Assembly (NCBI GenBank): GCA_951406725.2
Contig: OX597835.1
Location: 11,656,001-11,720,000 of the forward strand
Reading direction: 5' to 3'
Length of the DNA: 64,000 bases
DNA from: Octopus vulgaris
Taxonomy: Eukaryota
Within the stretch, counting starts at the first letter, position 1. Every line of letters begins with the position of its first letter. The notes beneath the pieces are model-generated. The model made no database searches. It had not been told where the DNA came from and saw only the letters and a list, made by a program, of their open reading frames with translations. Positions 852-63,163 of this stretch are shown one piece after another. A program made the translations under genes and the position numbers.

Positions 852-1538
852 GCCTCCTTCCTTCAAACGGGAAGGAAGAGCTATTTTCATCATCTTTGTG
901 GCTATGACGAAAGAATGTATCTGGTGGACGCGTCTGAAAAGATTGGAGACAAACACTTTCCCTCTCTGGTCAACCTCTTCAAGTACCACTTGAAAGGGAA
1001 AGTGAGAGTAGAGAGGCAAGTTTTGTCTAGCGAATGTTTAAAAAAAGATGGGTGAATGTAGCAAGGATGGCACGTATGAATGACGAAGCCACCTTGAGCA
1101 TAGTCCTATGAACCCAGAAATTGAAAACAGAGGGTTACCCACTTGCAAACAAATGTGGTAACATATAACAATATTGACCAAGGTTACCGTGGTCTTTTTC
1201 ATAGGCTTTTCTTCCCACGGATAAACCTTACTTGCTCTCTCCTTTACACCATACATCATAACACTGTGATACACGATCCCTATTGATCGTTTTTTTCCTC
1301 TTCCCCTTTTTTTCCCCCTTTTCCTTCTTTTTTCATTTCTCTTTCCTTTTGTTCCTTTTCCTTTTCCTCTTTTTTTAATTTTTTATTTTTCTTATTTTTT
1401 TCCCCTTTTACGATCCCTTTTGATCGAAAACCTACGCCACATTTTTTTTATCTTTTGTTTTTTCATGCACCAAAAGAAAAGCTCTACCTTGTAATTTGTC
1501 CCATCTGTGTGCAGCCCTGTGTGGCCAATAAAGAAACT
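852..1538 (+). mobile_element. 5'-truncated, degenerate Tx1-like LINE 3' end (ORF2 C-terminus plus 3'UTR)
   Basis: Translates to SLVNLFKYHLKGKVRVERQVLS...WVNVARMARMN, which aligns with GLINFFKFHLKRKMRLERKVLS...WVNCARLACIN of ORF 57083-57598. It ends CAGCCCTGTGTGGCCAATAAAGAAA, like the full-length copy (CAGCCCTTGTGGCCAATAAAAAAG). Confidence 0.9.
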
Positions 1539-2765: not shown

Positions 2766-3151
2766 GGAGGCGCAATGGCCCAGTGGTTAGGGTAGTGAAC
2801 TCACGGTCATAAGATCGCGGTTTCGATTCTCACACCGGGCGTTGTGAGTGTCTATTGAGAAAAAACACTCAAAGCTCTACGTGGCTCCGGCAGGGGATGG
2901 CGGCGGCGGACCCTGCTGTACCCTTTCACCACAACTTTCTCTCACTCTTTCTTCCTGTTTCTGTTGTACCTGCATTTCAAAGGGGCCAGCCTCGTCACAC
3001 TCTGTGTCACGCTGAGTTTTCTCGAGAACTACATTAAGGGCACAAGTGTCTGCGGAGTGCTCAGCCACTTGCACGTTAATTTCACGAGCAGGCTGTTCCG
3101 TTGATCCGATCCATTGGAACCTTCGTCGTCGCAACCGACGGAGTGCCGTAG
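2766..3151 (+). mobile_element. tRNA-derived SINE, family A
   Basis: A-box-like TGGCCCAGTGG and B-box-like GGTTTCGATTC. TSD ATACAAGTACG at 2756-2766 and 3152-3162. Homologous copies at 27636 and 39917. Confidence 0.92.
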
Positions 3152-6834: not shown

Positions 6835-7228
6835 TTTTCTACTCTAGGCACAAGGCCCAACATTTGGGGGGAGGGGGCAGTCCATTAGATCAACCCAGTA
6901 CACAACTGGTACTTAATTCATCGACCAGGAAAGGATGAAAGGAAAGTTGACCTCGGTGGAATTTGAACTCACAACCTAACGACAGACGAAATACCTATTT
7001 CTTTACTACCCACAAGGGGCTAAATACAGAAGGGACAAACAAGGACAGACAAACGGATTAAGTCGATTTTATCGACCCCAGTGCGTAACTGGTACCTATT
7101 TAATCGACCCCGAAGGGATGAAAAGCAAAGTTGACCTCGGCGGAATTTGAACTCAGAACGTATCGGCAGACGAAATACTGTTAAGCTTTTCGCCCGGCGT
7201 GCTAACGTTTCGGCCAGCTCGCCGCCTT
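6835..7228 (-). mobile_element. SINE family B dimer: a young-tail full copy (6996-7228) joined to a headless old-tail copy (6835-6995)
   Basis: The core ATCGACC..GAA.GGATGAAA...AAGTTGACCTCGG occurs twice. The junction GAAATACC|TATTTCTTT is identical to the junction in the 26-27 kb array. Confidence 0.88.
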
Positions 7229-7986: not shown

Positions 7987-8214
7987 TCCTTTCTACTTTA
8001 GGCACAAGGCCTGGAATTTGATAGGAGGGGACTAGTCCAGTACATCGACCCCAGTGCTCAGCTTGTACTTATTTTATCGACCCCTTCCCCCCCCCCCGAA
8101 AGCATGAAAGGCAAAGTCGACCTCAGCGGAATTTGAATTCAGAACGTAAAGACTGCCGAAGCTCTGCTAAGCATTTCATCCGGCGTGCTAACGAGTTTGC
8201 CAGCTCGCCACCTT
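7987..8214 (-). mobile_element. SINE family B, old-tail subfamily
   Basis: Same head and core as other B copies. The sense tail GGCCTTGTGCCTAAAGTAGAAAGG is followed by (ATT)n. Confidence 0.85.
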
Positions 8215-25046: not shown

Positions 25047-25222
25047 CTTGGCACAAGGCCACCAATTTCGAACTAGTTCGTAAGTCGGTTACATCGACCA
25101 TCTGGTACTTATTTTATCAACCCCAACAGGATGAAATGATAAGTTGATCTCGGTGGAATATGAACTCAGAACGTTAAGGACGGACGAAATGCTGCTAAAC
25201 GTTTTGTCCGGCATGCAAACGC
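25047..25222 (-). mobile_element. SINE family B, old-tail diverged copy
   Basis: GGCACAAGGCC tail, ACATCGACC, GGATGAAA core and CCGCCTT head end. Confidence 0.75.
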
Positions 25223-25366
25223 TTCTTTCAGCTCTCCGCCTTAAATTAGATAATGCATGTAATTTTGTCCCATGCAATAACAATTCTGGCAATGCACAAT
25301 ATAGGGCTAAAATCAAATTAATATACAAATTGGAAACTGCATTAAATTAAGATAAAGTTGTACATA

Positions 25367-25530
25367 GCGCAGGAGTGGCTGTGTGGTAAGTAGCTTGCTT
25401 ACGAACCACATGGTTCCGGGTTCAGTCCCACTGCGTGGCATCTTGGGCAAGTGTCTTCTGCTATAGCCCCGGGCCGACCAATGCCTTGTGAGCGGATTTG
25501 GTAGACGGAAACTGAAAGAAGCCCGTCGTA

Positions 25531-25577
<47 letters not shown>

Positions 25578-25780
25578 TTGTGTGTCTGTGTTTGTCCCCC
25601 TAGCATTGCTTGACAACCGATGCTGGTGTGTTTACGTCCCCGTCACCTAGCGGTTCGGCAAAAGAGACCGATAGAATAAGTACTGGGCTTACAAAGAATA
25701 AGTCCCAGGTGTCGATTTGCTCGACTAAAGGCGGTGCTCCAGCATGGCCGCAGTCAAATGACTGAAACAAGTAAAAGAGT
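25367..25780 (+). mobile_element. tRNA-derived SINE, family C, with an internal (TA)n(TG)n microsatellite
   Basis: A-box TGGCTGTGTGG and B-box GGTTCAGTCCC, ending in a GTAAAAGA tail. Multiple homologs in the window. Confidence 0.92.
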
Positions 25781-25986
25781 ATAGCATTTCCAACACGAAT
25801 ATAGAAGAGTAGTACGGCTCTATCTGTTAGAATTTTGTCTCAGTGATAAAACACCTAGAACTCTCTAGAAGGTCATTGGTAAATCACCAGATTCTGTGAT
25901 TCGCCGACGGCATTCCGAACGAGTCTCTCTGGGGCAAATTACTGCACGTTTTTATATGAATTATAAACACATCATTATTGAATAAC

Positions 25987-27503
25987 TATTTCTTTATTAC
26001 CCACAAGGGGCTAAACATAGAGGGGACAAACAAGGACAGACATAGTATTAAGTCGATTACATCGACCCCAGTGCGTAACTCGTGCTTAATTTATCGACCC
26101 CGAAAGGATGGAAGGCAAAGTCGACCTCGACGGAATTTGAACCCACAACGTAACGGCAGATGAAATACCTATTTCTTTATTACCCACAAGGGGCTAAACA
26201 TAGAGGGGACAAACAATGACAGACATAGGTATTAAGTCGATTACATCGACCCCAGTGCGTAACTGGTACTTAATTTATCGACCCCGAAAGAATGAAAGGC
26301 AAAGTCGACCTCGACGGAATTTGAACTCACAACGTAACGGCAGATAAAATACCTATTTCTTTATTACCCACAAGGGGCTAAACATAGAGGGGACAAACAA
26401 GGACAGATATAGGTATTAAGTCGATTACATCGACTCCAGTGCGTGACTCGTGCTTAATTTATCGACCCCGAAAGGATGGAAGGCAAAGTCGACCTCGACG
26501 GAATTTGAACTCACAACGTAACGGCAGATGAAATACCTATTTCTTTATTACCCACAAGGGGCTAAATATAGAGGGGAAAACAAGGACAGACATAGGTATT
26601 AAGTCGATTACATCGACCCCAGTGCGTAACTGGTACTTAATTTATCGACCCCGAAAGAATGAAAGGCAAAGTCCACCTCGACGGAATTTGAACTCACAAC
26701 GTAACGGCAGATGAAATACCTATTTCTTTATTACCCACAAGGGGCTAAACATAGAGGGGACAAACAAGGACAGACATAGGTATTAAGTCGATTACATCGA
26801 CCCCAGTGCGTAACTGGTACTTAATTTATCGACCCCGAAAGGATGAAAGGCAAAGTCGACCTCGACGGAATTTGAACTCACAACGTAACGGCAGATGAAA
26901 TACCTATTTCTTTATTACCCACAAGGGGCTAAACACAGAGGGGACAAACAAGGACAGATATAGGTATTAAGTCGATGACATCGACCCCAGTGCGTAACTG
27001 GTACTTAATTTATCGACCCCGAAAGAATGAAAGGCAAAGTCTACCTCGACGGAATTTGAACTCACAACGTAACGGCAGATGAAATACCTATTTCTTTATT
27101 ACCCACAAGGGGCTAAACATAGAGGGGACTAATAAAGACAGACATAGGTATTAAGTCGATTACATCGACCCCAGTGCGTAACTGGTACTTAATTTATCGA
27201 CTCCGAAAGAATGAAAGGCAAAGTCGACCTCGACGGAATTTGAACTCACAACGTAACGGCAGATGAAATACCTATTTCTTTATTACCCACAAGGGGCTAA
27301 ACACAGAGGGGACAAACAAGGACAGACATAGGTATTAAGTCGATTACATCGACCCCAGTGCGTAACTGGTACTTAATTTATCGACCCCGAAAGGATGAAA
27401 GGCAAAGTCGACCTCGACGGAATTTGAACTCACAACGTAGCGGCAGATGAAATACCGCTAGGTATTTGGACCGGCGTGTTAACGTTTCTGCCAGGTCACC
27501 GTT
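25987..27503 (-). repeat. Tandem array of 8 SINE-B-derived units (period 183-184 bp); only the last unit carries the head
   Basis: Unit starts at 25987, 26170, 26354, 26538, 26721, 26905, 27089 and 27273. Flanked by the direct repeat ATTATTGAATAAC at 25974-25986 and 27504-27516. Confidence 0.95.
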
Positions 27504-27635
27504 ATTATTGAATAACGTTTACATCACTTTACACCATGACTATACTTTTGTTCATTCTTGTTCTTTTAATTCGTCTTTCATCACTTCTTCTTTCCATGTT
27601 GAAATCATTTCAATCGTATCATCTATTTGCGTTTG

Positions 27636-28024
27636 TGGAGGCGCAATGGCCCAGTGGTTAGGGCAGCGGACTCGCGGTCGTAGGATCGCGGTTTCGATTC
27701 CAAGACCGGGTTTTGTGAGTGTTTATTGAGCGAAAACACCTAAAAGCTCCACGAGGCTCCGGCAGGGGATGGTGGTAATCCCTGCTGTACTCTTTCGCCA
27801 CAACTTTCTCTCACTCTTACTTCCTGTTTCTGTTGTACCTGTATTTCAAAGGGCCGGCCTTGTCACTCTCTGTGTTACGCTGAATATCCCCGAGAACTAC
27901 GTTAAGGGTACACGTGTCTGTGGAGTGCTCAGCCACTTACACGTTAATTTCACGAGCAGGCTGTTCCGTTGATCGGGTCAACCGGAACCCTCATCGTCGT
28001 AATCGACGGAGTGCTTCCATCACC
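27636..28024 (+). mobile_element. tRNA-derived SINE, family A
   Basis: Homolog of 2766-3151. TSD ATTTGCGTTTG at 27625-27635 and 28025-28035. Confidence 0.93.
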
Positions 28025-29413
28025 ATTTGCGTTTGGCTGTATCAGAATTAGCGCAAATTATATTCGTCTTGGTTTTGCGCTCATTTTCCAGTTATGCCGA
28101 TTCCGATGTCAAAATGCCAACCCAACTTGTTATGGTTCAAATTACAGATATTTATTAAATATTGATTAATGATTTTAGAAAAGGAACAATTTACAACTAA
28201 TTATTTAGAAATTTTAAAAATTAAAGCATTAATAAGACAAACGATTAAAAGACACAGAAGAAAAAAAATCGAACGTTTTTAACTTACAAATTGTCGTTTT
28301 GCTAACTCAAATAAAGGGTAGGCGACCTGTCGTGCTTTTAACGAGGCCAATGTATTTTACACCCCTTGGCTGGGTAGCACGGTGAAGATATATACATAAG
28401 ACATAATAATCCTAACCATAATAGACTTTTGTGCTAACATAAAATATTCACCTGTTGTTAGTTTAATTCTAAGAAACTGGATCTAATCATCTACCGCTTG
28501 ATCATATTGAGTGATTTATAATATTAATACATATAACCTTTTTAACATAGCAATATAGAGATCTGAATATAATTCAGTGCATTATTAGATATTATCTTTA
28601 TAAATACAAGTCGACTTTTTACGTCTAAGAGGGACAAAAGGATAAATAATGTAAAATATTTAGTCTCAAACGATGCTTCAAATCTAGTCACGTTCACCAT
28701 TTATCATCTCTGAAATCCTAAAGTAATCATAACTTTCAGACTCTGTCCTTAAATCAGCTTTCACTCTACTTAAATAATAAATAAGAGTTATTTTCTAATA
28801 CAAGATAATGCGTATGTATGTGTGTAGTACTTCACTGAGTGGGGGATGAAGTGTTTGTGAAAGTGTATGTGTTGTATATACGTGTCTATCAGTCGGCCAT
28901 GTCCAAAAATACATCTTTGTATTACCTACCGTTTTCACATCGCTTTCCAGACAGAACTGGGTAGGGAGGGAGATGGCAGGAAGGGAATAGATTAGTGACA
29001 AGGTGGACGATTTGAATTCAAAGGTCATATAACAGACCTATGTGAACTAAAACGTTTGATGAAGACATAACATATTTTTATAGACTCAATAACTGGCTTT
29101 CCGAGAAAAATCAACTGTAATAAAACTAAGCTGAACTGTCCAGCTTCGTGCGGCCGAAAACTGTTTATTTTATTTTATTTGAAAACGAATGAAGAGCAGT
29201 GCTTAATCCATTGATCATCTCGTTTGTCAGTCATGGTCAGCAGACGAGTAACTTTCCTGTGCCAGGATTATAAGCTGGCTGAGTACATACATACTGCATA
29301 CACACATACGCATATATATATATTATATATATATATATATATATATGAAAAATGTATGTCTGAATGTATATAACGATATTCATTTGAATATATATATATA
29401 AACATACACATAT

Positions 29414-29485
<72 letters not shown>

Positions 29486-29577
29486 GCATGAGTGCGTGCA
29501 TGTATAGTAATAGAAGAGGAGAGGCCATCCTTTTATTTAGACTAAGACTCCGCGAAGTTGTCTGCCTATATCAGAAG

Positions 29578-30017
<440 letters not shown>

Positions 30018-30415
30018 GGAAATAGAAGAGATAGAAAGGAAAACAAGATATAAATAATGCTTCTCCAAAAGAAAACGTGCCAAGCGAGAACGGAAAAATG
30101 AAAGGCGGCAGTAAAGACGTAGAGCAAAGTGTAAATGTAAGAAATATTCTCAGCAAATAAAGCAGAAATGATAGGAAGAGTTATAGCACAAGAATACGAT
30201 GATGACCAAAGAAGACATAGGGAGGATGTGATGCCGATATATTAGAGAAGATCAGGATCGATCAAGCACCCTCCCAATCTCAAGGACGTCGGTCGACGCA
30301 AGCTCAAATTTGAAACCGAAAAGATAGATTCGGTCCTTGGGCTATTCCAGACGAGAAATATAACTGAAATATAACAAGATTATTTAGGCTGCAGCGATGG
30401 TTTCTGCGGAGAGTG

Positions 30416-30828
30416 TTACTCTTTTACTCTTTACTCTTTTACTCTTTTACTTGTTTCAGTCATTTGACTGCGGCCATGCTGGAGCACCGCCTTCAGTCGA
30501 GCAAATCGATCCCGGGACTTATTCTTTTTGTAAGCCCAGTACTTATTCCATCGGTCTCTTTTGCCGAACCGCTAAGTGACGGGGACGGACATAAACACAC
30601 CAGCATCGGTTGTCAAGCAATGCTAGGGGGACAAACACAGACACACAAACACACACATATATATATACATATATACGATAGGCTTCTTTCAGTTTCCATC
30701 TACCAAATCCACTCACAAGGCATTGGTCGGCCCGGGGCTATAGCAGTAGACACTTGCCCAAGATGCCGCGCAGTGGGACTGAACCCGGAACCATGTGGTT
30801 GGTTAGCAAGCTACTTACCACACAGCCA
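30416..30828 (-). mobile_element. SINE family C
   Basis: Reverse-complement homolog of 25367-25780, with a (TACTCTTT)n tail. Confidence 0.92.
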
Positions 30829-30987
30829 GGATACAAAATAAAAGATCAAAGAGAACGCAGAGAACCATACTGGCGGGCGGAGAGGAATTTGTGAGAATCA
30901 AAGTTAAAAAGACATTTAGGACAAGATGATAGATTGAGAAGAGGGGAATTGCCGGACGAATGCATAAGAATAATGCTGTAAAGAACA

Positions 30988-31501
30988 TCTATATATATAA
31001 AACTGTAGTTGTGTGAGTGTCTGTCCCCTTCGATTTAGATTCCTAACTACTCCCACAATTTGCGGTGCAGTTTAACCAAATTCGGGTATCTTATAGTCGT
31101 GATTCATATCGAGCCCGTCTGGGTATTAGCGCGCGTCTACGATGAGTCTACGATTTTTAAAATAATTTAACATCAATTTTTATTCCATTTTAATGCATAT
31201 TTTTTCGTGTGTCGATGGCGGGGGAGTTGGCGACCACGCTCACATCTGCACCTGTGTTGCTTCTCCCCCTTCTTCCCTCCCTCGTGAAGCTGTGGGGAAG
31301 GGAGTGTAAGGAAATCAACGTCGTAAAGCGTTGTCAAGGAGACCAGCGTTCTTTTAGAACAACGACTTCATGGCTTGAAGACACCAAAACAGAAATGGCT
31401 AAGAAAGCCCGAGTTGGCATCTATAACGGAAGTAACTCTCTAAAAATGCTTATATAGTTATTTCCCTTACAAACCCGAGCAACGCCGGGCGATACTGCTA
31501 G
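30988..31501 (+). mobile_element. Non-autonomous Helitron
   Basis: A|TC...CTAG|T termini and no TSD. Subterminal hairpin CCCGAGCAACGCCGGG lies ~12 nt before the end. Confidence 0.85.
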
Positions 31502-31647
31502 TATAGAATAAGAGATAAAGGTTTTGATGTGATGTTAGAAGAATTGAAATAAAGAGTAGTAATAATCAAAGTAAAACTGGAAAGATATGACAACAGAAAA
31601 AGACAGTACAGGCAAAAAAGATTGTTTAAAGCAAATCAGAAGAAACC

Positions 31648-31870
31648 TATTTCTTTATTACCCACAAGGGGCTAAACACAGAGGGGACAAACAAGGACAG
31701 GCATAGGTATTAAGTGGATTACACCGACCCCAGTGCGTAACTGGTACTTAATTTATCGACCCCGAAAGGATGAAAGGCAAAGTCGACCTCGGCGGAATTT
31801 GAACTCAGAACGTAGCGGAAGACGAAATATCGCTTAGCATTTCGCCCGGCGTGCTAACGTTTCTGCCAGC
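31648..31870 (-). mobile_element. SINE family B, young-tail copy
   Basis: 21-bp TSD TAAAGCAAATCAGAAGAAACC at 31627-31647 and 31871-31891. Confidence 0.95.
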
Positions 31871-32385
31871 TAAAGCAAATCAGAAGAAACCGTTTCAGGA
31901 ATTAGATGGGCAAATACACGTAACAAGGGTACCAGATGCAGAGGATGCATAAATGGTCTGGCTTCAACAGTGCACGTATTCAATAAGGATATCGGGATGG
32001 AATTTGGGATTAAAAAGCTTGGCATGCTTAACATACAAAGGCCAACTAATGTCATCTGATAGTGAAGGACTATCCAATGGTGAGAAAATCAAGTATGTTG
32101 AGACGGATGGATATAAGTATCAGGGTATTTATTTTGGGGGTATGACAAAAGTCAAGGAGAGTGAGATAAAGGAAAGCTTTGAACTTACATCAGAAGAAAC
32201 AAATTAATTACAGAAATTTGGACTCAATGGAAAGAATAAGAGCAGGGCAGTGAATACAGGGGCTGTTTTCTGAAAGGGATACGGTGCAGGTGGTGTTAAG
32301 TAAACAAAGAACGGGATTGAAGAAATGAATAGAAAAACCGGGAAAGTGATGACAGTGAACAAATCCTAAAATCGATATCGATAGG

Positions 32386-32800
32386 CTAGATGTGGTTTTG
32401 TGATCTGAAAAGACCAAGAAAATGATCTTGATTGAGCTTACAGTCCCATGGGAAGTGGTGTGATCAGGACGACGAATTGAAGAGTGCCAAGTATGAGAGG
32501 ATTGCAGGGAGAAAGGATTGCATTTACGGCTTTTCCTAGTCGAGGCTGGCTGCAGGGGGTTCCTTGTTCACTCGGCATGGAGGATGCTTACAGCCATTGA
32601 AATGAGTGGAAAGGAGATGAGGGTGGCTGTGTACAGGATGGGTGAGGTAGCTGAAAGAGTCTCTGCTTGGTTATGTAGCAAGAACGAGGAGTTAAGCTGG
32701 AAACCAAGAAGTGATGCGGTGCAGTCATTTGCCCACCTCTGCTGATCCACCAACGGAAGGGTATTACGGTTCAGGGTTGAAACACCCGCTGAATACTCAA
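32386..32800 (+). pseudogene. Hero-like RLE retrotransposon 3' fragment
   Basis: DVVL*SEKTKKMILIELTVPWE and VEAGCRGF...EVAERVSAWL resemble Hero-clade endonuclease motifs (IELTVPWE, VEVGCRGF, AE.AS.W). Confidence 0.7.
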
Positions 32801-32804
32801 TACC

Positions 32805-33038
32805 TATTTCTTTATTACCCACAAGGGGCTAAACATAGAGAAACAAACAAGGACAGACATAGGTATTAAGTCGATTACATCGACCCCAGTGCGTAACTGG
32901 TACTTAATTTATCGACCCCGAAAGGATGAAAGGCAAAGTTGACCTCGGCGGAATTTGAACTCACAACGTAACGGCAGACGAAATACCGCGAAGCATTTCG
33001 CCCGGCGTGCTAACGTTTCTGCCTGCTCGCCGCCTTCC
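32805..33038 (-). mobile_element. SINE family B, young-tail full-length copy
   Basis: TSD AATACTCAATACC at 32792-32804 and 33039-33051. Sense head AGGCGGCGAGCAGGCAGAAACG with B-box GAGTTCAAATTCC. The central GCCTTTCATCCTTTCGGGGTCGATAAATTAAGTACCAG resembles the MetaSINE domain as I recall it. Confidence 0.95.
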
Positions 33039-33267
33039 AATACTCAATACCGTCTGTTGAAATCAGTTCCTCCAGGCTAAAGTTCCTTTCACTTTGGTGA
33101 GTGGAAGAAGCACCTTCTTTTACGTGTTATTAACATATACATATGTATATGTATGTATGTATTTATGTACGTATGTGTTTGCGCGTATGTGTGTGTGTAC
33201 GTATGTATGTAGTTTATGTGTCTGTATGAATGTAATGAATGTATGTATACATGTATGCACGCATATA

Positions 33268-33722
<455 letters not shown>

Positions 33723-36515: not shown

Positions 36516-36729
36516 TTGTGTGTCTGTGTTTGTCCCCCTAGCATTGCTTGACAACCGATGCTGGTGTGTTTATGTCCCCGTCACTTAACGGTTCGGCAAA
36601 AAAGAGACCGATAGAATAAGTACTGGGCTTACAAAAAGAATAAGTCCCGGGGTCGATTTGCTCGACTAAATGCGGTGCTCCAGCATGGCCGCAGTAAAAA
36701 TGACTGAAACAAGTAAAAGAGTAAAAGAA
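36290..36729 (+). mobile_element. SINE family C
   Basis: Near-identical to 25367-25780. Confidence 0.92.
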
Positions 36730-39242: not shown

Positions 39243-39916
39243 TGTAGTTTTAGAATATGTCTGAAGTCTTGAGATTGAGAAGAAAGTATCCGTGTTTTGT
39301 TAGGCTGTCCAGTTTTAATTAAGGGAGAGCATCAAATGGTAAGACAGCTGGGAATTCCAGAGATAAGAAATTATGCTCGTATTATTAAAATTGTTCAAAG
39401 TGGTGATGTAAATGTGTGCATGAACAAAGCCACCAAATATAAAAATACTAAGAACCACAACTCTGTATACAGTTTAAAATCGTACCCTGCTAAGGCATTG
39501 CTCACAACCCACAGAACACTCATACTATTTAATCGCATAGCCCACACATATTGTGTGCGCAACGTACACAGCACATGCTTTTATAATGAACGCCCGTTTA
39601 AAATAAAACCCCCAACGCACTTAATATATATTCCGCAGATTCACCAGCCGAGACTATAAGACTTGATAAATATGCCCATACAAAATATACTTCAAACAAA
39701 CACTGCCTGACATGATAATGTATATATCACACTGAGGTACGTACCCTGTGTGAGAGCCACGCATAGCTTGCTCACAAGGCGCATTCTCAACACATCTATT
39801 ACTGTTATATATAATACAGAAAAATAAAATATTTTCTTCACAAGCACCATCAGACGCCGCAATATAATACAGAAATATAGAACCGTACAAACAGCAGCCG
39901 AAGCTATAATAATAGT

Positions 39917-40299
39917 GGAAGCACTCCGTCGGTTACGACGACGAGGGTTCCGGTTGATCCGAATCAACGGAACAGCCTGCTCGTGAAATTAACGTGTAAG
40001 TGGCTGAGCACTCCACAGACACGTGTACCCTTAACGTAGTTCTCGGGGATATTCAGCGTGACACAGAGAGTGACAAGGCCGGCACTTTGAAATACAGGTA
40101 CAACAGAAACAGGAAGTAAGAGTGAGAGAAAGTTGTGGTGAAAGAGTACGGCAGGGATCACCCCCATCCCTTGCCGGAGCCTCGTGGAGCTTTAGGTGTT
40201 TTCGCTCAATAAACACTCACAACGCCCGGTCTGGGAATCGAAACCGCGATCCTACGACCGCGAGTCCGCTGCCCTAACCACTGGGCCATTGCGCCTCCA
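39917..40299 (-). mobile_element. tRNA-derived SINE, family A
   Basis: Reverse-complement homolog of the other A copies. TSD CTATAATAATAGT at 39904-39916 and 40300-40312. Confidence 0.93.
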
Positions 40300-40404
40300 C
40301 TATAATAATAGTAATAATAACAACAACAACAATAACAGCAACAATAATAATAATAATAAAAGATGGGTTACAGTAAATATTGTTGGTGGGTGTGGTTTTG
40401 AAAT

Positions 40405-40545
40405 TTTTGCAAAGGGTCAACAATTTCGGGGACAGGATAAGTCGATTACGTCGACCCCAGTACTCAACTGGTATTTATTTCATCGACACCGAACGGAGGA
40501 AGGGGCAAAGCCGACATAGACGGGATTTGAACTCATAACGTGAAA
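40405..40545 (-). mobile_element. Diverged partial SINE family B
   Basis: AAGTCGATTACGTCGACCCCAGTACTCAACTGGT and GATTTGAACTC motifs. Confidence 0.65.
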
Positions 40546-52564: not shown

Positions 52565-52732
52565 GCAATTTATAAGGGCGTTGTACATCGACCCTAGAGC
52601 TAGAACGAAACTTATCTTATCGACCTTGAAGTGATGCAATACGATGTCGACCTCGACGGAATTTTGACTTCAGTATATAACAACTGCAAAATTTGTCCCA
52701 TGCGCTAAAACTTCTGCCACCTCGTCGCTTGA
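52565..52732 (-). mobile_element. Diverged SINE family B
   Basis: ACATCGACCCT, TATCGACC and GTCGACCTCGACGGAATTT motifs plus head remnant. Confidence 0.65.
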
Positions 52733-52756: not shown

Positions 52757-53195
52757 ATCCTTTCTATTATAGGTCCAAAGATTAGTTGATTACATCGATA
52801 CCAGTGCGCAAGCAGCATTTATTTCATCGACCCCGAAAGGAGGGTGAAATGCAACGCCGATGTTAGTGGATCTTGAACTCAAAACGTAAAGATGGATGAA
52901 TTACCAATTTCATTACTACCCACAAGGGGCTAAACACAGAGAGGACAAACAAGGACAAACACACGGGTTAAGTCGATTATATCGACCCCAGTGTTTCACT
53001 GGTACTTAATTTATCGACCCCGAAAGGATGAAAGGCAAAGTCGACCTCGGCGGAATTTGAACCCAGAACGTAACGGCAGGCGAAATACGGCTACGCATTT
53101 CGTCCAGCGTGCTAACGTTTCTGCCAGCTCGCCGCCTTGACGGATGAATTACCGTTAAGCATTTTCTCCGGTGTGGCAACGAGTCAGCTAACTTG
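52757..53195 (-). mobile_element. Old SINE B (52757-52905 plus 53139-53195) with a young SINE B (52906-53138) nested inside it
   Basis: TSD GAYGGATGAATTACC at 52891-52905 and 53139-53153; the old head continues after the TSD. Confidence 0.9.
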
Positions 53196-53211
53196 CTTCC
53201 TTAACATCAAC

Positions 53212-56799: not shown

Positions 56800-57082
56800 C
56801 AATTCTTTTTTATTGGCCACAAGGGCTGACACGCATGATTACATAAAGGGACAGGACAGGACGAAAGGTTACAAAGGGTTTTGTCCGTTTGTTAAAAAAT
56901 CCGTGTAAAAAAAAACTTTAAAACAATGATTATTAAAACAATGAAAAACTCCCAAAAGGGGGAGACGTCTCGAAATGTTCCCGGTGGAAAAAACCCTACA
57001 AAAGCCAACGGGAGCCTGGTCAAAAAAAGGGGGTGTAGAGAGTCCCCTTTCTTCTCCTTTTACATTACCTTTTTCTTTGAAA

Positions 57083-60000
57083 TCACAGGCGAAACCTGAG
57101 AACTGGTCCATTTATACAGGCCAGTCTCGCACAATTCACCCACCTTTCATAAAACTTGCTATCGGACAGCACTTTCCTCTCTAACCTCATCTTCCTTTTC
57201 AAGTGAAACTTGAAAAAGTTGATGAGGCCTTGACCAAAGAGGAAAGTGTCTGTCTTTAGCCCTTTCAAACGAGTCCACCACACGACCTCTTTCGCCACAG
57301 CCACTAGGCACAAGAAAACGGCCTCGCCCTCCTTGTTAAAGGAGGTCGGCGGGGCAATCTTCACTATGGATTCGGCCGATAGTCGGATCCGTCCTACACG
57401 TGACAGTAGCTGTTCGACATAAACCCATATTTCAGCAATACTCGGGCACTGGACGAGTGCGTGCAGAACGGTTTCGTCGTCCTGGCAACACCTCGGGCAG
57501 GCCCGGCTGACGGCACTTCCGTGCCGGTAGAGTTTATCTCGAACAGGCAGAGCCCCTCGGTAGCACTGCCAGGCGAGAGACCTCTGGAAATTATCCATCG
57601 GCCCCGGCCCGAAAGTCCTCCCGAACAGACCTGCTCAGTTCGTCGTCTTCAACGCCTAGAGTTTCCCCGAGAACGTCGTCGCATTTTTCCTCCACTAACC
57701 CTCTATAGAACGCTAGAGTGGAGCTGTAACCGACCGCATTGCCCGCCTGGTGGAGGGCGGAGAGGGCTTGACGGCACTCGAGGTGCCAAGCGCCCTTTCT
57801 CGGTCTACGTTTGATCCAGGTCTGCAGCTCCGTCAAAGAGACGAGCTGCGGAAAATCGCGTCTGACAAAAGACGACCACACCTGTTCACCGTCTAGGAAG
57901 CGCTTGAGATGCCGCAGCCTGAGCGCATGTCTGCGCAACAGCAACCACGGCATTCCAAGGCCTCCGTTCAGCGGTCGTTGACAGCAGATGGATCGCCTGA
58001 CCAGTGGCACCTGACCCTTCCACAAAAAGTCGAAGAGCAGACGTACCAGCTTGGCCAACCAGCGGTCGGGACAAGGGACGACGGTCAAGCGGTAATAGAT
58101 GACGGATGCGATGTACGCATTCGCCACCTCCGCTCGACCTTTCAGGGACAGCTTCCTCTCGGCCCATTTCTGGGTGAGACGTGCCACCCTGCTCGTCACC
58201 TCTTCCCAGTTCTTATCCACCTGGAGGTCCGGACCGAACCAGACCCCGAGCAGTTTAACGGGTCCGTCTGTCCAGCGCCCTACGACGCTGTTGGACGGCA
58301 TGGGCTTGCCTCTCCAGGTGCCCAGTTGCAAGCCCACAGACTTTTCCGCGTTAATCTTTGCCCCTGTCACCGCTTCGTACTGGTTTAGCGTCTCGCCAAT
58401 CAGGCCAATGTGCCTGTGGCTCGACACCACCACGGTGACGTCGTCGGCATAAGCAGACACGCTGTTTCCGCCTCCTAGATCGCGCGGGATGCCCCTCAAA
58501 GCCTCCAACTTGCGCAGTAATGGCTCGAGAGTCAAAATGTACAAGAGGGAGGAGAGAGGGCATCCTTGGCGGACCGAACGCGAGATGTCGAACGGTTCCG
58601 AAAGGTGACCGTTCACCCGTATCACCGAGCAGATGTTGCTGTATAAAGCAGCGATCCACCCGCGGAAGACTGGACCGAAGCCGGCTGCCTTGAGGACAGC
58701 TGCCAGGTACCGATGGTCGACCCTATCGAAGGCTTTACTCTGATCCAAGTTGATCAAAGCCCCACCCGCGCCAGCGTCGTTACCCACCCTCTCTATGATG
58801 TAGCGCATGAGATGGAGGTTGTCGTGTATCGACCTGGTCGGCACGGCGCATGTCTGCGTCCCGCCGACCAGCTTGTCCACGACAAGCGCCAATCTCTTGG
58901 CTAGCACCTTGGCCAAAATCTTCAACTCTGCATTGAGCAGAGTGATGGGCCGGAAATTGCCTATAACGTCCCCCTTGTTTGGGTCCTTCTTTAGCAAAGC
59001 CACCACCCCTCGACAGACAAAAGCAGGAATTCTCCCGTTTTGCTGCCAGTTGCAGTAGACGTTTGCCAACAGGTCCGCAAACAAGTCTGGCATTGAAAAG
59101 TAAAGCTCGTAGGGCAGACCATCCAAACCCGGCGATCTACCTCTCGTGCAACTCTTCATCGCTTCCTGTACTTCCCAGGCAGATATCGGTCCTTCGCAGC
59201 ACTCTGCCTCGCTGTCCGAGAGTTGCGGCAGTCCGTCCAGGTACACACCGAAGTCTGTACCGTTGGTGTCCGTTCCACCGCTCGTCCCAAACAGTTGAGC
59301 AAAGTGCCGCTGAAGTACCGTACACATCTGCTTCGGTTGGGTAACCTCGCGCCCGTTCTGGTCCACCAAAGACCGAATGGTTGCTCTGTTGCCTCGCTTC
59401 GCCTCCGCCACGCGGGCCCATCGAGCGGCTCTAGTCCCCTCCCCGCTTAGCGAACGTGCCTTAGCTCTGACAACGCAGCCTTCGTGTTTGGCGTCGAAGT
59501 GTTGGTCGAGGGCCAACCTTGCCGCCAACACGTCGGTCGCGATGCCAGTGTCAAGAGCCTCGTCTAGTTTCTTAACTAAATCCCGCTCTCTCTTCCTACG
59601 TTCAATAGCTAGAGTCTTACTATACCTAATCGACTCTACTCTAATTGCTCTCTTGAGGGCAAACCACCAGTTGTTGTTGATGATTGCCCCCGTGAGCGCC
59701 CGCTTAACTAGTAAACTAATCCGGTCTCTGTAAGCTTTGCACGCCGTTAACGACGCGTTCAGCTTCCAGTAGCCGGGTCCCTGTCTATGTAGCCTATCTA
59801 AGTCGACCGTACAGATCACTAATTTGTGGTCCGTATATTCGACTAGGTGGAATTGTGGACACCCTACGCTGTCCTTATCCGCTGGCCTACAAAACACTCT
59901 ATCTAAGTACGATCTAGACGACCCGATGCGGTTTGTCCAAGTCCACATTGGCACATTCGGGTTGTCTAGTCGAAACCTGTCGGACAGCTGAAAGCGGCCG

Positions 60001-60518
60001 AGTAGGTTGGCGAGGCTCTTGCACCCTCCCCCTCTCCTAACAGACGCTCCCCTGCCCACCCGATCGAAACGTTCGTCTAAGACAGCGTTCCAATCCCCAA
60101 CTAGTACTAGAGTGCGTGACGTTCCCAGGAAAACTTCCAGACGTTTGAAATAATCCGACTGCCCTGCTCCTGTCGGAGCGTAGGCAGCCAGCAGTCTGAA
60201 AGCACCGCCGTCACTACCGTCCACGTCGAGGACCACCAACTTACCTTCCGGATCCAAGAAGACTGTCCTTATTTTCAGGTCCAGGCCCTTCCGAAACAAC
60301 ACCGCAGTACCACCACCGCCCGCTCCCGGCCGACACGGAGATAGAAATATCTCGTATCCGCCGAAAAGGGCTGCGAGTTCCTGCGGGTCGGAGAGCCTGG
60401 TTTCACTGATGGCTGCTACATCCACATCATGAAACCTCAGGTCGTTTAACAGGTGACCCTGTTTCCAAGGTGACCCGAGGCCTCTCACATTCAAGCAACC
60501 GATTCTAAGATTTGCCAT
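57083..60518 (-). CDS. ORF2: APE endonuclease, reverse transcriptase and C-terminal CCHC zinc finger, with one +1 frameshift near 57635 (~1144 aa if corrected)
   Basis: APE motifs CLNVRGL, ISET, YAP, GDWN, YLDR and TDH. RT motifs SPGLDG, FRPITLLN, KAFDRVDH, RQGCPLS and YADD. L1/Tx1-type GPGYWKLN and W..RKLS.KGR. CPRC-x8-H-x4-C lies in the downstream frame 57083-57598. Confidence 0.95.
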
Positions 60519-60556
60519 GTCTCAAAGTAGGGGGAAAAAAAGGGAGAAAAAAGGCT

Positions 60557-61363
60557 CTACTTACTGTTGTTGGTGGTGGGGGTGGCTCCCTTGTGCTTTT
60601 GCACGGGTGCTTCCACAATGTTTTTATAAAGTTTCTTCGAGAAACTTTTCCCTAGCGATCCCACATCGTTAGGGAATATTTGTTTGATTTCATCATATGA
60701 TTTTGCATTTATTTTTATTGTGAGAATGTGTGCTGGTGGTGTGTTTTGTGTTGGTATGATGAAATCGGTTATATTTGTACTAGTTTTGTTTTTTAAGTAC
60801 TCCACTAGTTTTTGGTTCTTTGTGTTTATTGATGTAATTGTGTCTGTGTGTGTTTGTGTGTGTGGCAGTGGCAGTAGTGGTGTCGAAAGTGTTGTTGTTG
60901 TTTGTTGTTGTGAGTGTGTGTTGTTGTTGTTGTTGTTGTTGATGTTGGGAAGCACTATTTGTTCGTGCTTCCCCTGTAAATCTTTTTGTTTCTTCCTCCT
61001 TTTCTTCTTTGGAGGCACTATACTCCATTCTCCTTTGTTGGAATCAGAGCTCGCACAATCCGAGATCTCTTCATCCGGCAAAGGAATGGTTGAGGGTCTG
61101 CTTCAGTAGCAGGACGAAAAGTTTCTGGTTCCACCGGTATCGGTGGTGCCGCTGCTCCTGTTACTGTTGATGTCGCTGCTGTCGACCTTCGAGGTACTGG
61201 TGTCGGTGTTGGTTTGGTGGTGGTTGTCGGTGTTGGTTTGGTGGTGGTTGTTGTTGTTGGAGGTGGTGTTGCTCGTCTTGGTGCTGGTGTTGGTGATGGT
61301 GTTGGTGGTGTGGCAGCCTTTGGTGTTTCTTGCTGTTTTTGTTGTTTCTGTTGTTGTTGCTTG

Positions 61364-61403
<40 letters not shown>

Positions 61404-62426
61404 GCTGCTGCCTCTTGCTGAAAGCCTCCATCCTCTTTTTGTGAATGGGACAGTCCCTCTTTAAGTGGCTTTCGCTGCTGCAGAGAAAGCATTTTGGCTT
61501 TCGCCCCTCCACAGCAACGTTTAGCCTAGTGCCGTCCGGCAAACTTACGAAATCAGGGACTTTACTTATATTCTCTTGCTGAATTTGCGCAAGAAGCAGC
61601 ACTCCCATCCCCAACCAGTTTTTCGCCCTCACTCTCCTGACATCTAGAATGGTGGTAGTGTCCTCTATATCATAGAGGACAGCTGCCACCAGCCATGACA
61701 TATTTAATTCAGGGGGGACGAGGTCGATTTTTATTTTTGTAACTCTTCGCCCGAGGTGGGTTGGAATTAGTAACAAATTCTCAGTTTGCAAGGGCGAAAT
61801 GGCGTTCGCCCTTGCCAGCTCCTCTGTTGGGAAGCGAACCTCCACGGTTCCAAAACGCTTCCCCTTGGTTACGTAGCTCTTTTGGGCCCAAATGGGCTTT
61901 AGAGCTATCTCCAACTGTTGGGGTGTGGCATTTGTTATTCTTTTTAGTTTTCTGTCGAAAACTTTGTAAATTATTGTTTGCTTGTTGGTGCTTTCAATCA
62001 CCTCTTGTGGAGTATTGAGGAAGATACCATTGCCATCCTTTCTTAACAATTCCTTCGCTCTTTTCACATCTTCTAGAGTTATTTTAACTTCCTCCGAAAT
62101 TTGCTTCGCAGCAGAAGCAAAATTGTTGGAAGTTTTTTCTTTTATCTCCGTGTCAATGTTTGTGATGATTTTTGTATTTGTTTTTTCTCCTCCTCCTTCC
62201 TTACCAAAGCATTGGGTGAAGGCAGAGGGGGAAAATCAAGAATTACGTCGAACGCGACGTCATGACTTGCATTTTCCTTTTGAACCGAGCGCGTGCTCTG
62301 CGGTTCGGAAGGAGAATCTTTGTTGCCTTTTAAGGCGTGAAGTGGGTGTTTTGTACGAGTTGTGCGTGTTTGCGGAGGGAGTGTATTTTGAAGGAAGGAA
62401 CAGCCAACTGTTCGCTTCATAGCCAT
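60557..62426 (-). CDS. ORF1: gag-like nucleic-acid-binding protein with CCHC knuckle, poly-Q and Pro/Thr tract; two frameshifts (~62150-62190 and ~61090)
   Basis: CFLCSSESHLKRDC knuckle in 61018-62067. The adjoining frames 62142-62426 (ATG start, DFPPLPSP) and 60557-61081 (W..VPPKKKRR) look like its N- and C-terminal parts, which is an inference. Confidence 0.8.
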
Positions 62427-62658
62427 GTTTTTTCTTGTTGTAATATTCAAAATGTTGAAAAATGTCAAATGTTCAAAATTTTCAAACGCAATTTCACCCC
62501 GAATGGGGCAAAATTTCGCCCAACCGACGAGCTCCGCAAGAAGCCGGTCGGTTTGGCTACAGAAATATTAAAAAATATTCAAACCTATTAATAGATTTCC
62601 AATGAAATTGGTGTCAAATTCACGGAGCTGATTCACGTACGTCTAACGGCGTCGGAAG

Positions 62659-63163
<505 letters not shown>

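Follow-up and report, generated by a model that had tools for sequence, protein, structure and literature searches.

How do eight partial copies of a short retroposon come to stand head to tail, all beginning at the same internal position and all enclosed by one TSD? This is the question raised by positions 25974 to 27516 of the window, by which we mean the whole stretch of 64,000 nucleotides that was analysed. On the minus strand, eight headless SINE units, each running from SINE position +50 to the end of the AAGAAATA tail and each bearing a box-B-like motif, occupy 25987..27456. In its scan of the window, TRF returned a repeat at 25981-27456 with a period of 184, 8.0 copies and 95% matches. 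Six units measure 184 bp and two (u1 and u4) 183 bp; numbered against the direction of transcription, they are u1 (25987-26169), which is the last unit in transcription order, u2 (26170-26353), u3 (26354-26537), u4 (26538-26720), u5 (26721-26904), u6 (26905-27088), u7 (27089-27272) and u8 (27273-27456), which adjoins the head. The single SINE head (27457..27503, minus strand) has a box-A-like motif at 27484-27493, and exactly matching 13-bp TSD copies lie at the 3' end (25974..25986) and the 5' end (27504..27516) of the element. This 13-mer, ATTATTGAATAAC, occurs in the window at 25974 and 27504 only, for which the chance is about 1e-6. All seven internal junctions are identical, AAATACC being joined directly to TATTTC. 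The preliminary description of an eight-unit, 184-bp head-to-tail array in one 13-bp TSD is therefore borne out by TRF, by the unit coordinates and by the exact 13-mer pair. Its mention of one Pol III head holds for the box-A-like part, which is single, and does not extend to the box-B-like motif, which is found in all eight units. No long frame was seen in translations of the array flanks, and the immediate flanks have no second copy within the window. The array sits between two other interspersed repeats (25596-25781 and 27635-28019), each recurring in the window, for instance at 30440-30630 and 36534-36723, and at 39916-40300 and 2766-3146.

As far as the letters themselves allow, the element would be classed as a tRNA-type SINE by its internal Pol III boxes A and B, which we take the two motifs to be from the usual consensus; the array contains the box-A-like motif once and the box-B-like motif in 8/8 units. 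Other traits of such SINEs are also found, namely TSDs of variable length (13, 13, 15 and 21 bp), a fixed 3' end and a high copy number. ARAGORN predicted 0 tRNA genes in the window, and the 34 Rfam matches at 25500-33500, sub-threshold and mostly on microsatellites, included none to a tRNA and none on a SINE copy. Both the element and the microsatellite-rich window resemble, we presume, octopus DNA, and the nearest relatives, by resemblance only, are presumably the octopus tRNA-derived SINEs OK, OR1 and OR2 (tRNA-Core, tRNA-Deu).

We then asked what sets the constant start of the unit. A self site, C/GGTATTT, lies at SINE position about +50 (27450..27457, minus strand) and belongs to the 3' arm of a head-region hairpin. 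The array tail is present at five loci of the window, and in 3/5 it joins +50 of a SINE. At 52780..53202 (minus strand), an older SINE with a different tail has received, exactly at its self site, a full-length copy (52906-53138) flanked by a 15-bp TSD (14/15 identical), so that this locus has two heads; the GCAGGC comparator at 52.9-53.1 kb, earlier taken for a solo copy, is in fact this nested one. At 6835..7228 (minus strand), a unit with the array tail adjoins, at the self site, the body of a SINE with another tail, and the two form a one-head hetero-dimer. Self-insertion at +50 is demonstrated at these two loci of the window, 52.9 kb and 7 kb. The solo copies, both on the minus strand, are a full-length one at 32792..33051, with a 13-bp TSD starting GGTATT, and a slightly 5'-truncated one at 31627..31891, with a 21-bp TSD starting GGTTTC. 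The insertion targets read AAAC/GTTATT for the array, then AGAC/GGTATT, AAAC/GGTTTC and TAAC/GGTAAT, the self site being C/GGTATT. The three non-self targets match C/GGTATT at 18/21 bases and 0 of 10^6 random triples from the window reach 18 (mean 5.5), in a test that comprises three independent targets only and uses the same loci in which the motif was first noticed. Target choice thus appears non-random in this small sample, as for Tx1-mobilised SINEs of the SINEU-3 kind. The tail-to-+50 junction is a family trait, and it quite likely has its source in self-targeting. Indeed, the self-target site named in the preliminary description finds support in the nested copy, whose TSD lies exactly there, and in the matching targets at the solo copies. 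Older SINEs of the same family with other tails or none are found at 8034-8214, 25081-25243, 40438-40541 and 52584-52730; one head and core has therefore been combined with several tails.

The tail-to-+50 junction also recurs beyond the array, in sequencing runs whose short contigs leave array lengths elsewhere unreadable. The search covered 24 runs, 20 of them containing part of the stretch and none being stranded raw RNA; X15-X20, contig sets from RNA or possibly from RNA, have shares of 0.07-0.25, and four other runs were aligned to the 33-kb solo copy at 88% likeness. In two runs 377,021 and 199,255 contigs aligned, the counts from them being incomplete and not copy numbers, and in two raw runs 14 and 143 reads only. 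In the coordinates of the solo copy, the tail-to-+50 junction appears as the joint from 32981 to 32799, displaced by six letters that are compatible with either side. This self joint was found in 20 contigs of X5 (organism B), a larger number of contigs than for any other of the 15 joints listed, in 1 read of X22 and in 2 reads of X23; for X13 (organism E), where counts are likewise incomplete, 0 contigs were counted and no such loose end is among the 6 rows listed. The largest class of loose ends among those listed for X5, 961 contigs, starts after the tail plus GGTATT and has the SINE body as its consensus. This consensus reads GCAGAC, not the GCAGAT of the array, and its agreement is 0.49, so that only part of the 961 contigs are self-junctions. 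Further joints lead from the tail to +17 (33020 to 32805; 16 and 5 contigs), to +20 (33017 to 32805; 2 and 4 contigs) and to +1 (33036 to 32800; 8 and 0 contigs). Those at +17 and +20 lie 3-6 bases before AAAC/GTTAG at +23, a second site and perhaps a minor target. The listing, beyond which there are a further 407 joints and 794 loose ends, has no joint with two heads among its 15, and pattern scans for the tail and the central motif gave 0 loci in genome, viral and metagenome contigs.

Two side observations come from the same alignments. On 32799-32857, X23 has loose ends of 14 and 10 reads (few reads, in one run), which suggest a separate tandem of the tail alone (about 69 bp) plus a 16-nt spacer starting GGAATT; such an arrangement suggests something like repeated units separated by a TSD. 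Tail depth (32812-32825) is about equal to head depth (33008-33021) in organism B and about a quarter of it in organism E, a contrast hinting at a lineage-specific burst, summed depth being no copy number.

Which enzyme would cut the self site? Target choice probably depends on a partner LINE of L1/Tx1 type and its endonuclease; the match among the targets is an observation, the enzyme an inference. A tail common to LINE ends, another trait of tRNA-type SINEs, is present here as a loose similarity only, to two LINE 3' ends of the window: that of an L1/Tx1-type fragment (1495..1536, plus strand), where 42 nt match the SINE tail at 81% (window-wide E=1.6e-6), and that of a long L1/Tx1-type LINE (56803..56872, minus strand), similar by alignment. 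The fragment, at 781-1536 on the plus strand, is the 5'-truncated 3' part of a related LINE inside a (TATC)n tract. The long element, at 56803-62660 on the minus strand between (TAA)n tracts, is apparently full-length, with ORF1 (61018-62235, CCHC-like knuckle), ORF2 (57591-60521, endonuclease and RT) and a zf-RVT end in another frame (57083-57634), all on that strand. We take it to be of L1/Tx1 type from its architecture together with its microsatellite targets; its best homologue is 73% identical, and no clade name was found among 62 homologues or the atlas matches. Since both LINEs of the window lie in microsatellites, neither is demonstrated as the partner of the SINE, and no partner LINE with the same target was found within the window.

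The history of the array can be read from the differences among its units. Pairs of units differ at 2-11 sites (mean 6.6, or 3.6%) and no two units are identical; from the array majority they differ at 0-6 sites (mean 2.0%), and the solo copies stand on average 9.8 and 13 differences from the array units. Both array variants are present in 8/8 units, u1 and u3 share three derived changes, yet differ from each other at 5 sites, and u2, u4, u6 and u7 have one change in common. All these groupings, listed in the preliminary description, are thus present. Were the phylogeny a star, two units would have 3 changes in common with P=1e-4, or 3e-3 if CpG sites are weighted x10, and a star phylogeny alone was rejected. 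Moreover, units at a distance of two places show fewer differences (5.3) than adjacent units do (7.3), with p=0.009 in a permutation test that ran through all 40,320 orders. In a tree of 12 units only the sister pair u1 and u3 is resolved (96/92), the array forming one clade in 38% of bootstrap trees. The unity of the array rests on the two shared variants, one of them a CpG site. As a private marker of the array, GCAGAT is weak, being a CpG transition whose base also occurs in the old host SINE at 52.9 kb; the second lies 40 nt into the unit, beyond the TSD lengths found here (13-21 bp). The array units and the 33-kb solo copy also share, at the 32964 site, an allele that is in the minority among the aligned contigs (about 17% in X5 and 6% in X13), which suggests one young subfamily.

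Local expansion of the array by DNA duplication is, in our judgement, very likely. The changes shared by u1 and u3, together with the closeness of units two apart, point to DNA-level exchange with a two-unit step after some mutation, u3 with u4 and u2 marking the two-unit duplication; the star-phylogeny and permutation tests agree here with the local expansion that had been proposed at the outset. The label of nascent satellite is not supported by the same data. With no identical units and with u1 and u3 differing at 5 sites, nothing points to recent growth, and eight units on average 3.6% apart do not make the long homogenised arrays of satellite DNA proper. The array is small and ageing, not a growing satellite. 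The available text of PMC13282606 equates a JC distance of 0.09 with 25 My, and a unit divergence of 2% would be some 5-6 My old if that organism and rate apply.

The head tells a different story from the units. It departs at 7/45 sites from the majority of three other full heads, against 4/184 from the family majority for u8 (Fisher p=0.001; p=0.05 against u3, the most diverged unit), a difference that the preliminary description does not mention. Despite this diverged head, the TSD copies are identical at 13/13 positions and the last 58 nt of u1 have 0 changes. As the TSD and the last unit are undecayed, the head likely diverged before insertion, which fits a chimeric source locus with an old head and young units. 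The single insertion of a multimer, as first suggested, agrees with the one perfect TSD and with a head already diverged. In X5, C>G reaches 2% at two places, 32964 and 32987; the two C>G changes of the head are therefore rare among the aligned contigs, the 88% likeness filter working against diverged heads. As a separate matter, two of the seven changes of the head yield a perfect inverted repeat, AAATACC-TAGC-GGTATTT, around the self site (27449-27467, minus strand), a pattern such as quasi-palindrome correction would leave.

We therefore propose a chain of self-targeted insertion, retrotransposition of one multimer into the present site and subsequent unequal exchange, which as a whole we hold to be somewhat better than an even bet. 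Insertions with the array tail land at (A/G)C/G(G/T)T(A/T)T-like sites, one of which the SINE family carries at +50, and since the SINE carries its own likely insertion site, copies would land inside relatives. Insertion at +50 gives, as at the two loci above, either a two-head nest with a TSD or a one-head dimer, and the second head may be lost through 5' joining by homology or through deletion between direct repeats. At some source locus, two or more young units would have stood behind an older head; this locus would then have been transcribed through and reverse-transcribed into the present site, and none of its kind was seen in the analysis. Pol III usually stops at a run of four T. Such runs are absent from the array-majority unit, and the two that occur are private changes in u2 and u4, so that a source multimer could have been read through. 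Unequal exchange including a two-unit step would finally have brought the array to eight units, which then drifted apart; of this last step, the pattern is observed and the mechanism is our reading of it. One could extend the proposal to a self-targeting retroposon whose partner endonuclease has its preferred cut site inside the element's own tRNA-like arm, the family converting itself genome-wide, at one fixed position, into nucleosome-sized arrays that are mobile as whole multimers. Such a programmed route from SINE to satellite is possible and, on balance, doubtful. Under this wider reading, whole multimers would keep their mobility thanks to a single box A, from which Pol III would run on through units that have box B and no terminator.

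Other histories have to be weighed against the proposed chain. A single reverse-transcription event, with jumps from +50 to the 3' end or with a 184-nt RNA circle as template and a final switch to a head-bearing RNA, would leave to DNA exchange only the shuffling of the units. It would account at once for the exact junction, the single head and TSD and the two variants in eight units, as well as for a head that comes from another molecule, and the junction does form a short inverted repeat, GAAATA-GG-TATTTC. Folding, however, lends no support to this circular RNA or template-jump alternative, already raised in the preliminary description: positions +52 to +57 pair with the head arm or locally and never with the tail (P about 0, in 3/3 folded monomers), in the folded dimer the junction hairpin likewise comes to P about 0, and the circular unit gains no stability over its shuffles (z=+0.43). 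Pairing of the tail with the self site in the RNA, as a guide for jump or circle, was rejected by the same folding. A single event also fails to predict the target-like flanks of the solo copies, the nested copy with its TSD and the hetero-dimer, and it meets the rejection of a star phylogeny alone; we regard it as unlikely. The array might instead have been built in place, a solo copy receiving one or more self-insertions and the product being homogenised and expanded by unequal exchange. Self-insertion in place is what the 52.9 kb and 7 kb loci display, and if a TSD arose at the self site, every junction would receive the GCAGAT base as a matter of course. The second shared variant, however, is past the reach of such a TSD, and the TSD and 3' unit of an old host should be equally diverged, against the perfect TSD and unchanged u1 end found here (P about 0.01 and 6e-5 for an old host, given these two). 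This history is, in our opinion, quite unlikely.

Slippage would dispense with a second insertion altogether, the body being duplicated, here or at the source copy, between the self site and the similar start of the 3' TSD. TSD starts do resemble the self site (6/6 bases at the 33-kb solo copy), the microhomology spans exactly one unit, and private variants would be common to all units by construction. Against it, the TSD of the array starts with GT while all seven junctions have GG, which leaves one base of exact homology; moreover, slippage is unable to make the hetero-dimer or the two-head nest and still requires a target preference. We give it a low probability, slightly below that of building in place. 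That the eight-unit length is an artefact of assembly seems hardly credible: the length is that of the assembly, but no units are identical, their 2-11 differences are hierarchical and the junction is also present in independent runs. The self-targeted chain, ending in retrotransposition of a multimer and unequal exchange, is accordingly the reading that we retain.

Comparable systems have been described. According to the available text of PMC10702118, squamate sSats share with the array a tandem SINE part with one longer terminal unit that reaches the SINE end, a unit in the 150-180 bp class or, here, just above it, alternating dimers and many short loci. With its partial SINE repeat and extended terminal unit, the array is an sSat-like locus in structure. 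The first sSat duplication is put down there to unequal recombination or chance re-insertion, and the repeated part varies among short loci, whereas the unit start in the array recurs at a target-like site of the family; in contrast to sSats, no long or homogenised array is in evidence here (same portion of PMC10702118). The Discussion of that paper also mentions jerboa Dip/B1 multimers, which like the array have up to eight units but consist of full-length SINEs in tandem, whereas the array units are headless with a fixed internal start. In crocodilians, as far as the accessible part of PMC4494074 reports, SINEU-3 shows a target preference inherited from its Tx1-type partner, Tx1-Mar, and sequential insertion at a regenerated target produces tandem copies. 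SINEU-3 targets Mariner-N4_AMi and forms tandems of complete copies separated by a TSD, whereas the target of the array lies inside the SINE's own family, the repeated unit is headless and the partner LINE is only inferred (PMC4494074, same part). SINEs and L1-Tx1 LINEs are abundant and active in Octopus (PMC13282606, PMC8967140), and the available portions of these two papers contain no mention of self-targeting or of SINE arrays; PMC4758252, PMC5804259 and PMC8967140, in the parts available, give background on mollusc SINEs. No self-targeting SINE and no description of this array appeared in the titles and abstract openings covered, Repbase, supplements and most subscription papers lying outside that scope; repeat libraries in supplements may already list the dimer.

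Taken on its own, the array is an ordinary short SINE-derived tandem, and as a seed it seems to have stalled; the self-targeting behind it is the main interest. Chance is usually invoked for the initial duplication from which a satellite starts; in this case one can point to a definite cause, an insertion site within the element. If self-targeting operates genome-wide, such multimers may stand in repeat libraries as SINE families of their own, and thousands of independent dimers and arrays of the same unit and of differing age would offer a test of which seeds stall and which amplify. It would also define the target of an L1/Tx1-type endonuclease.
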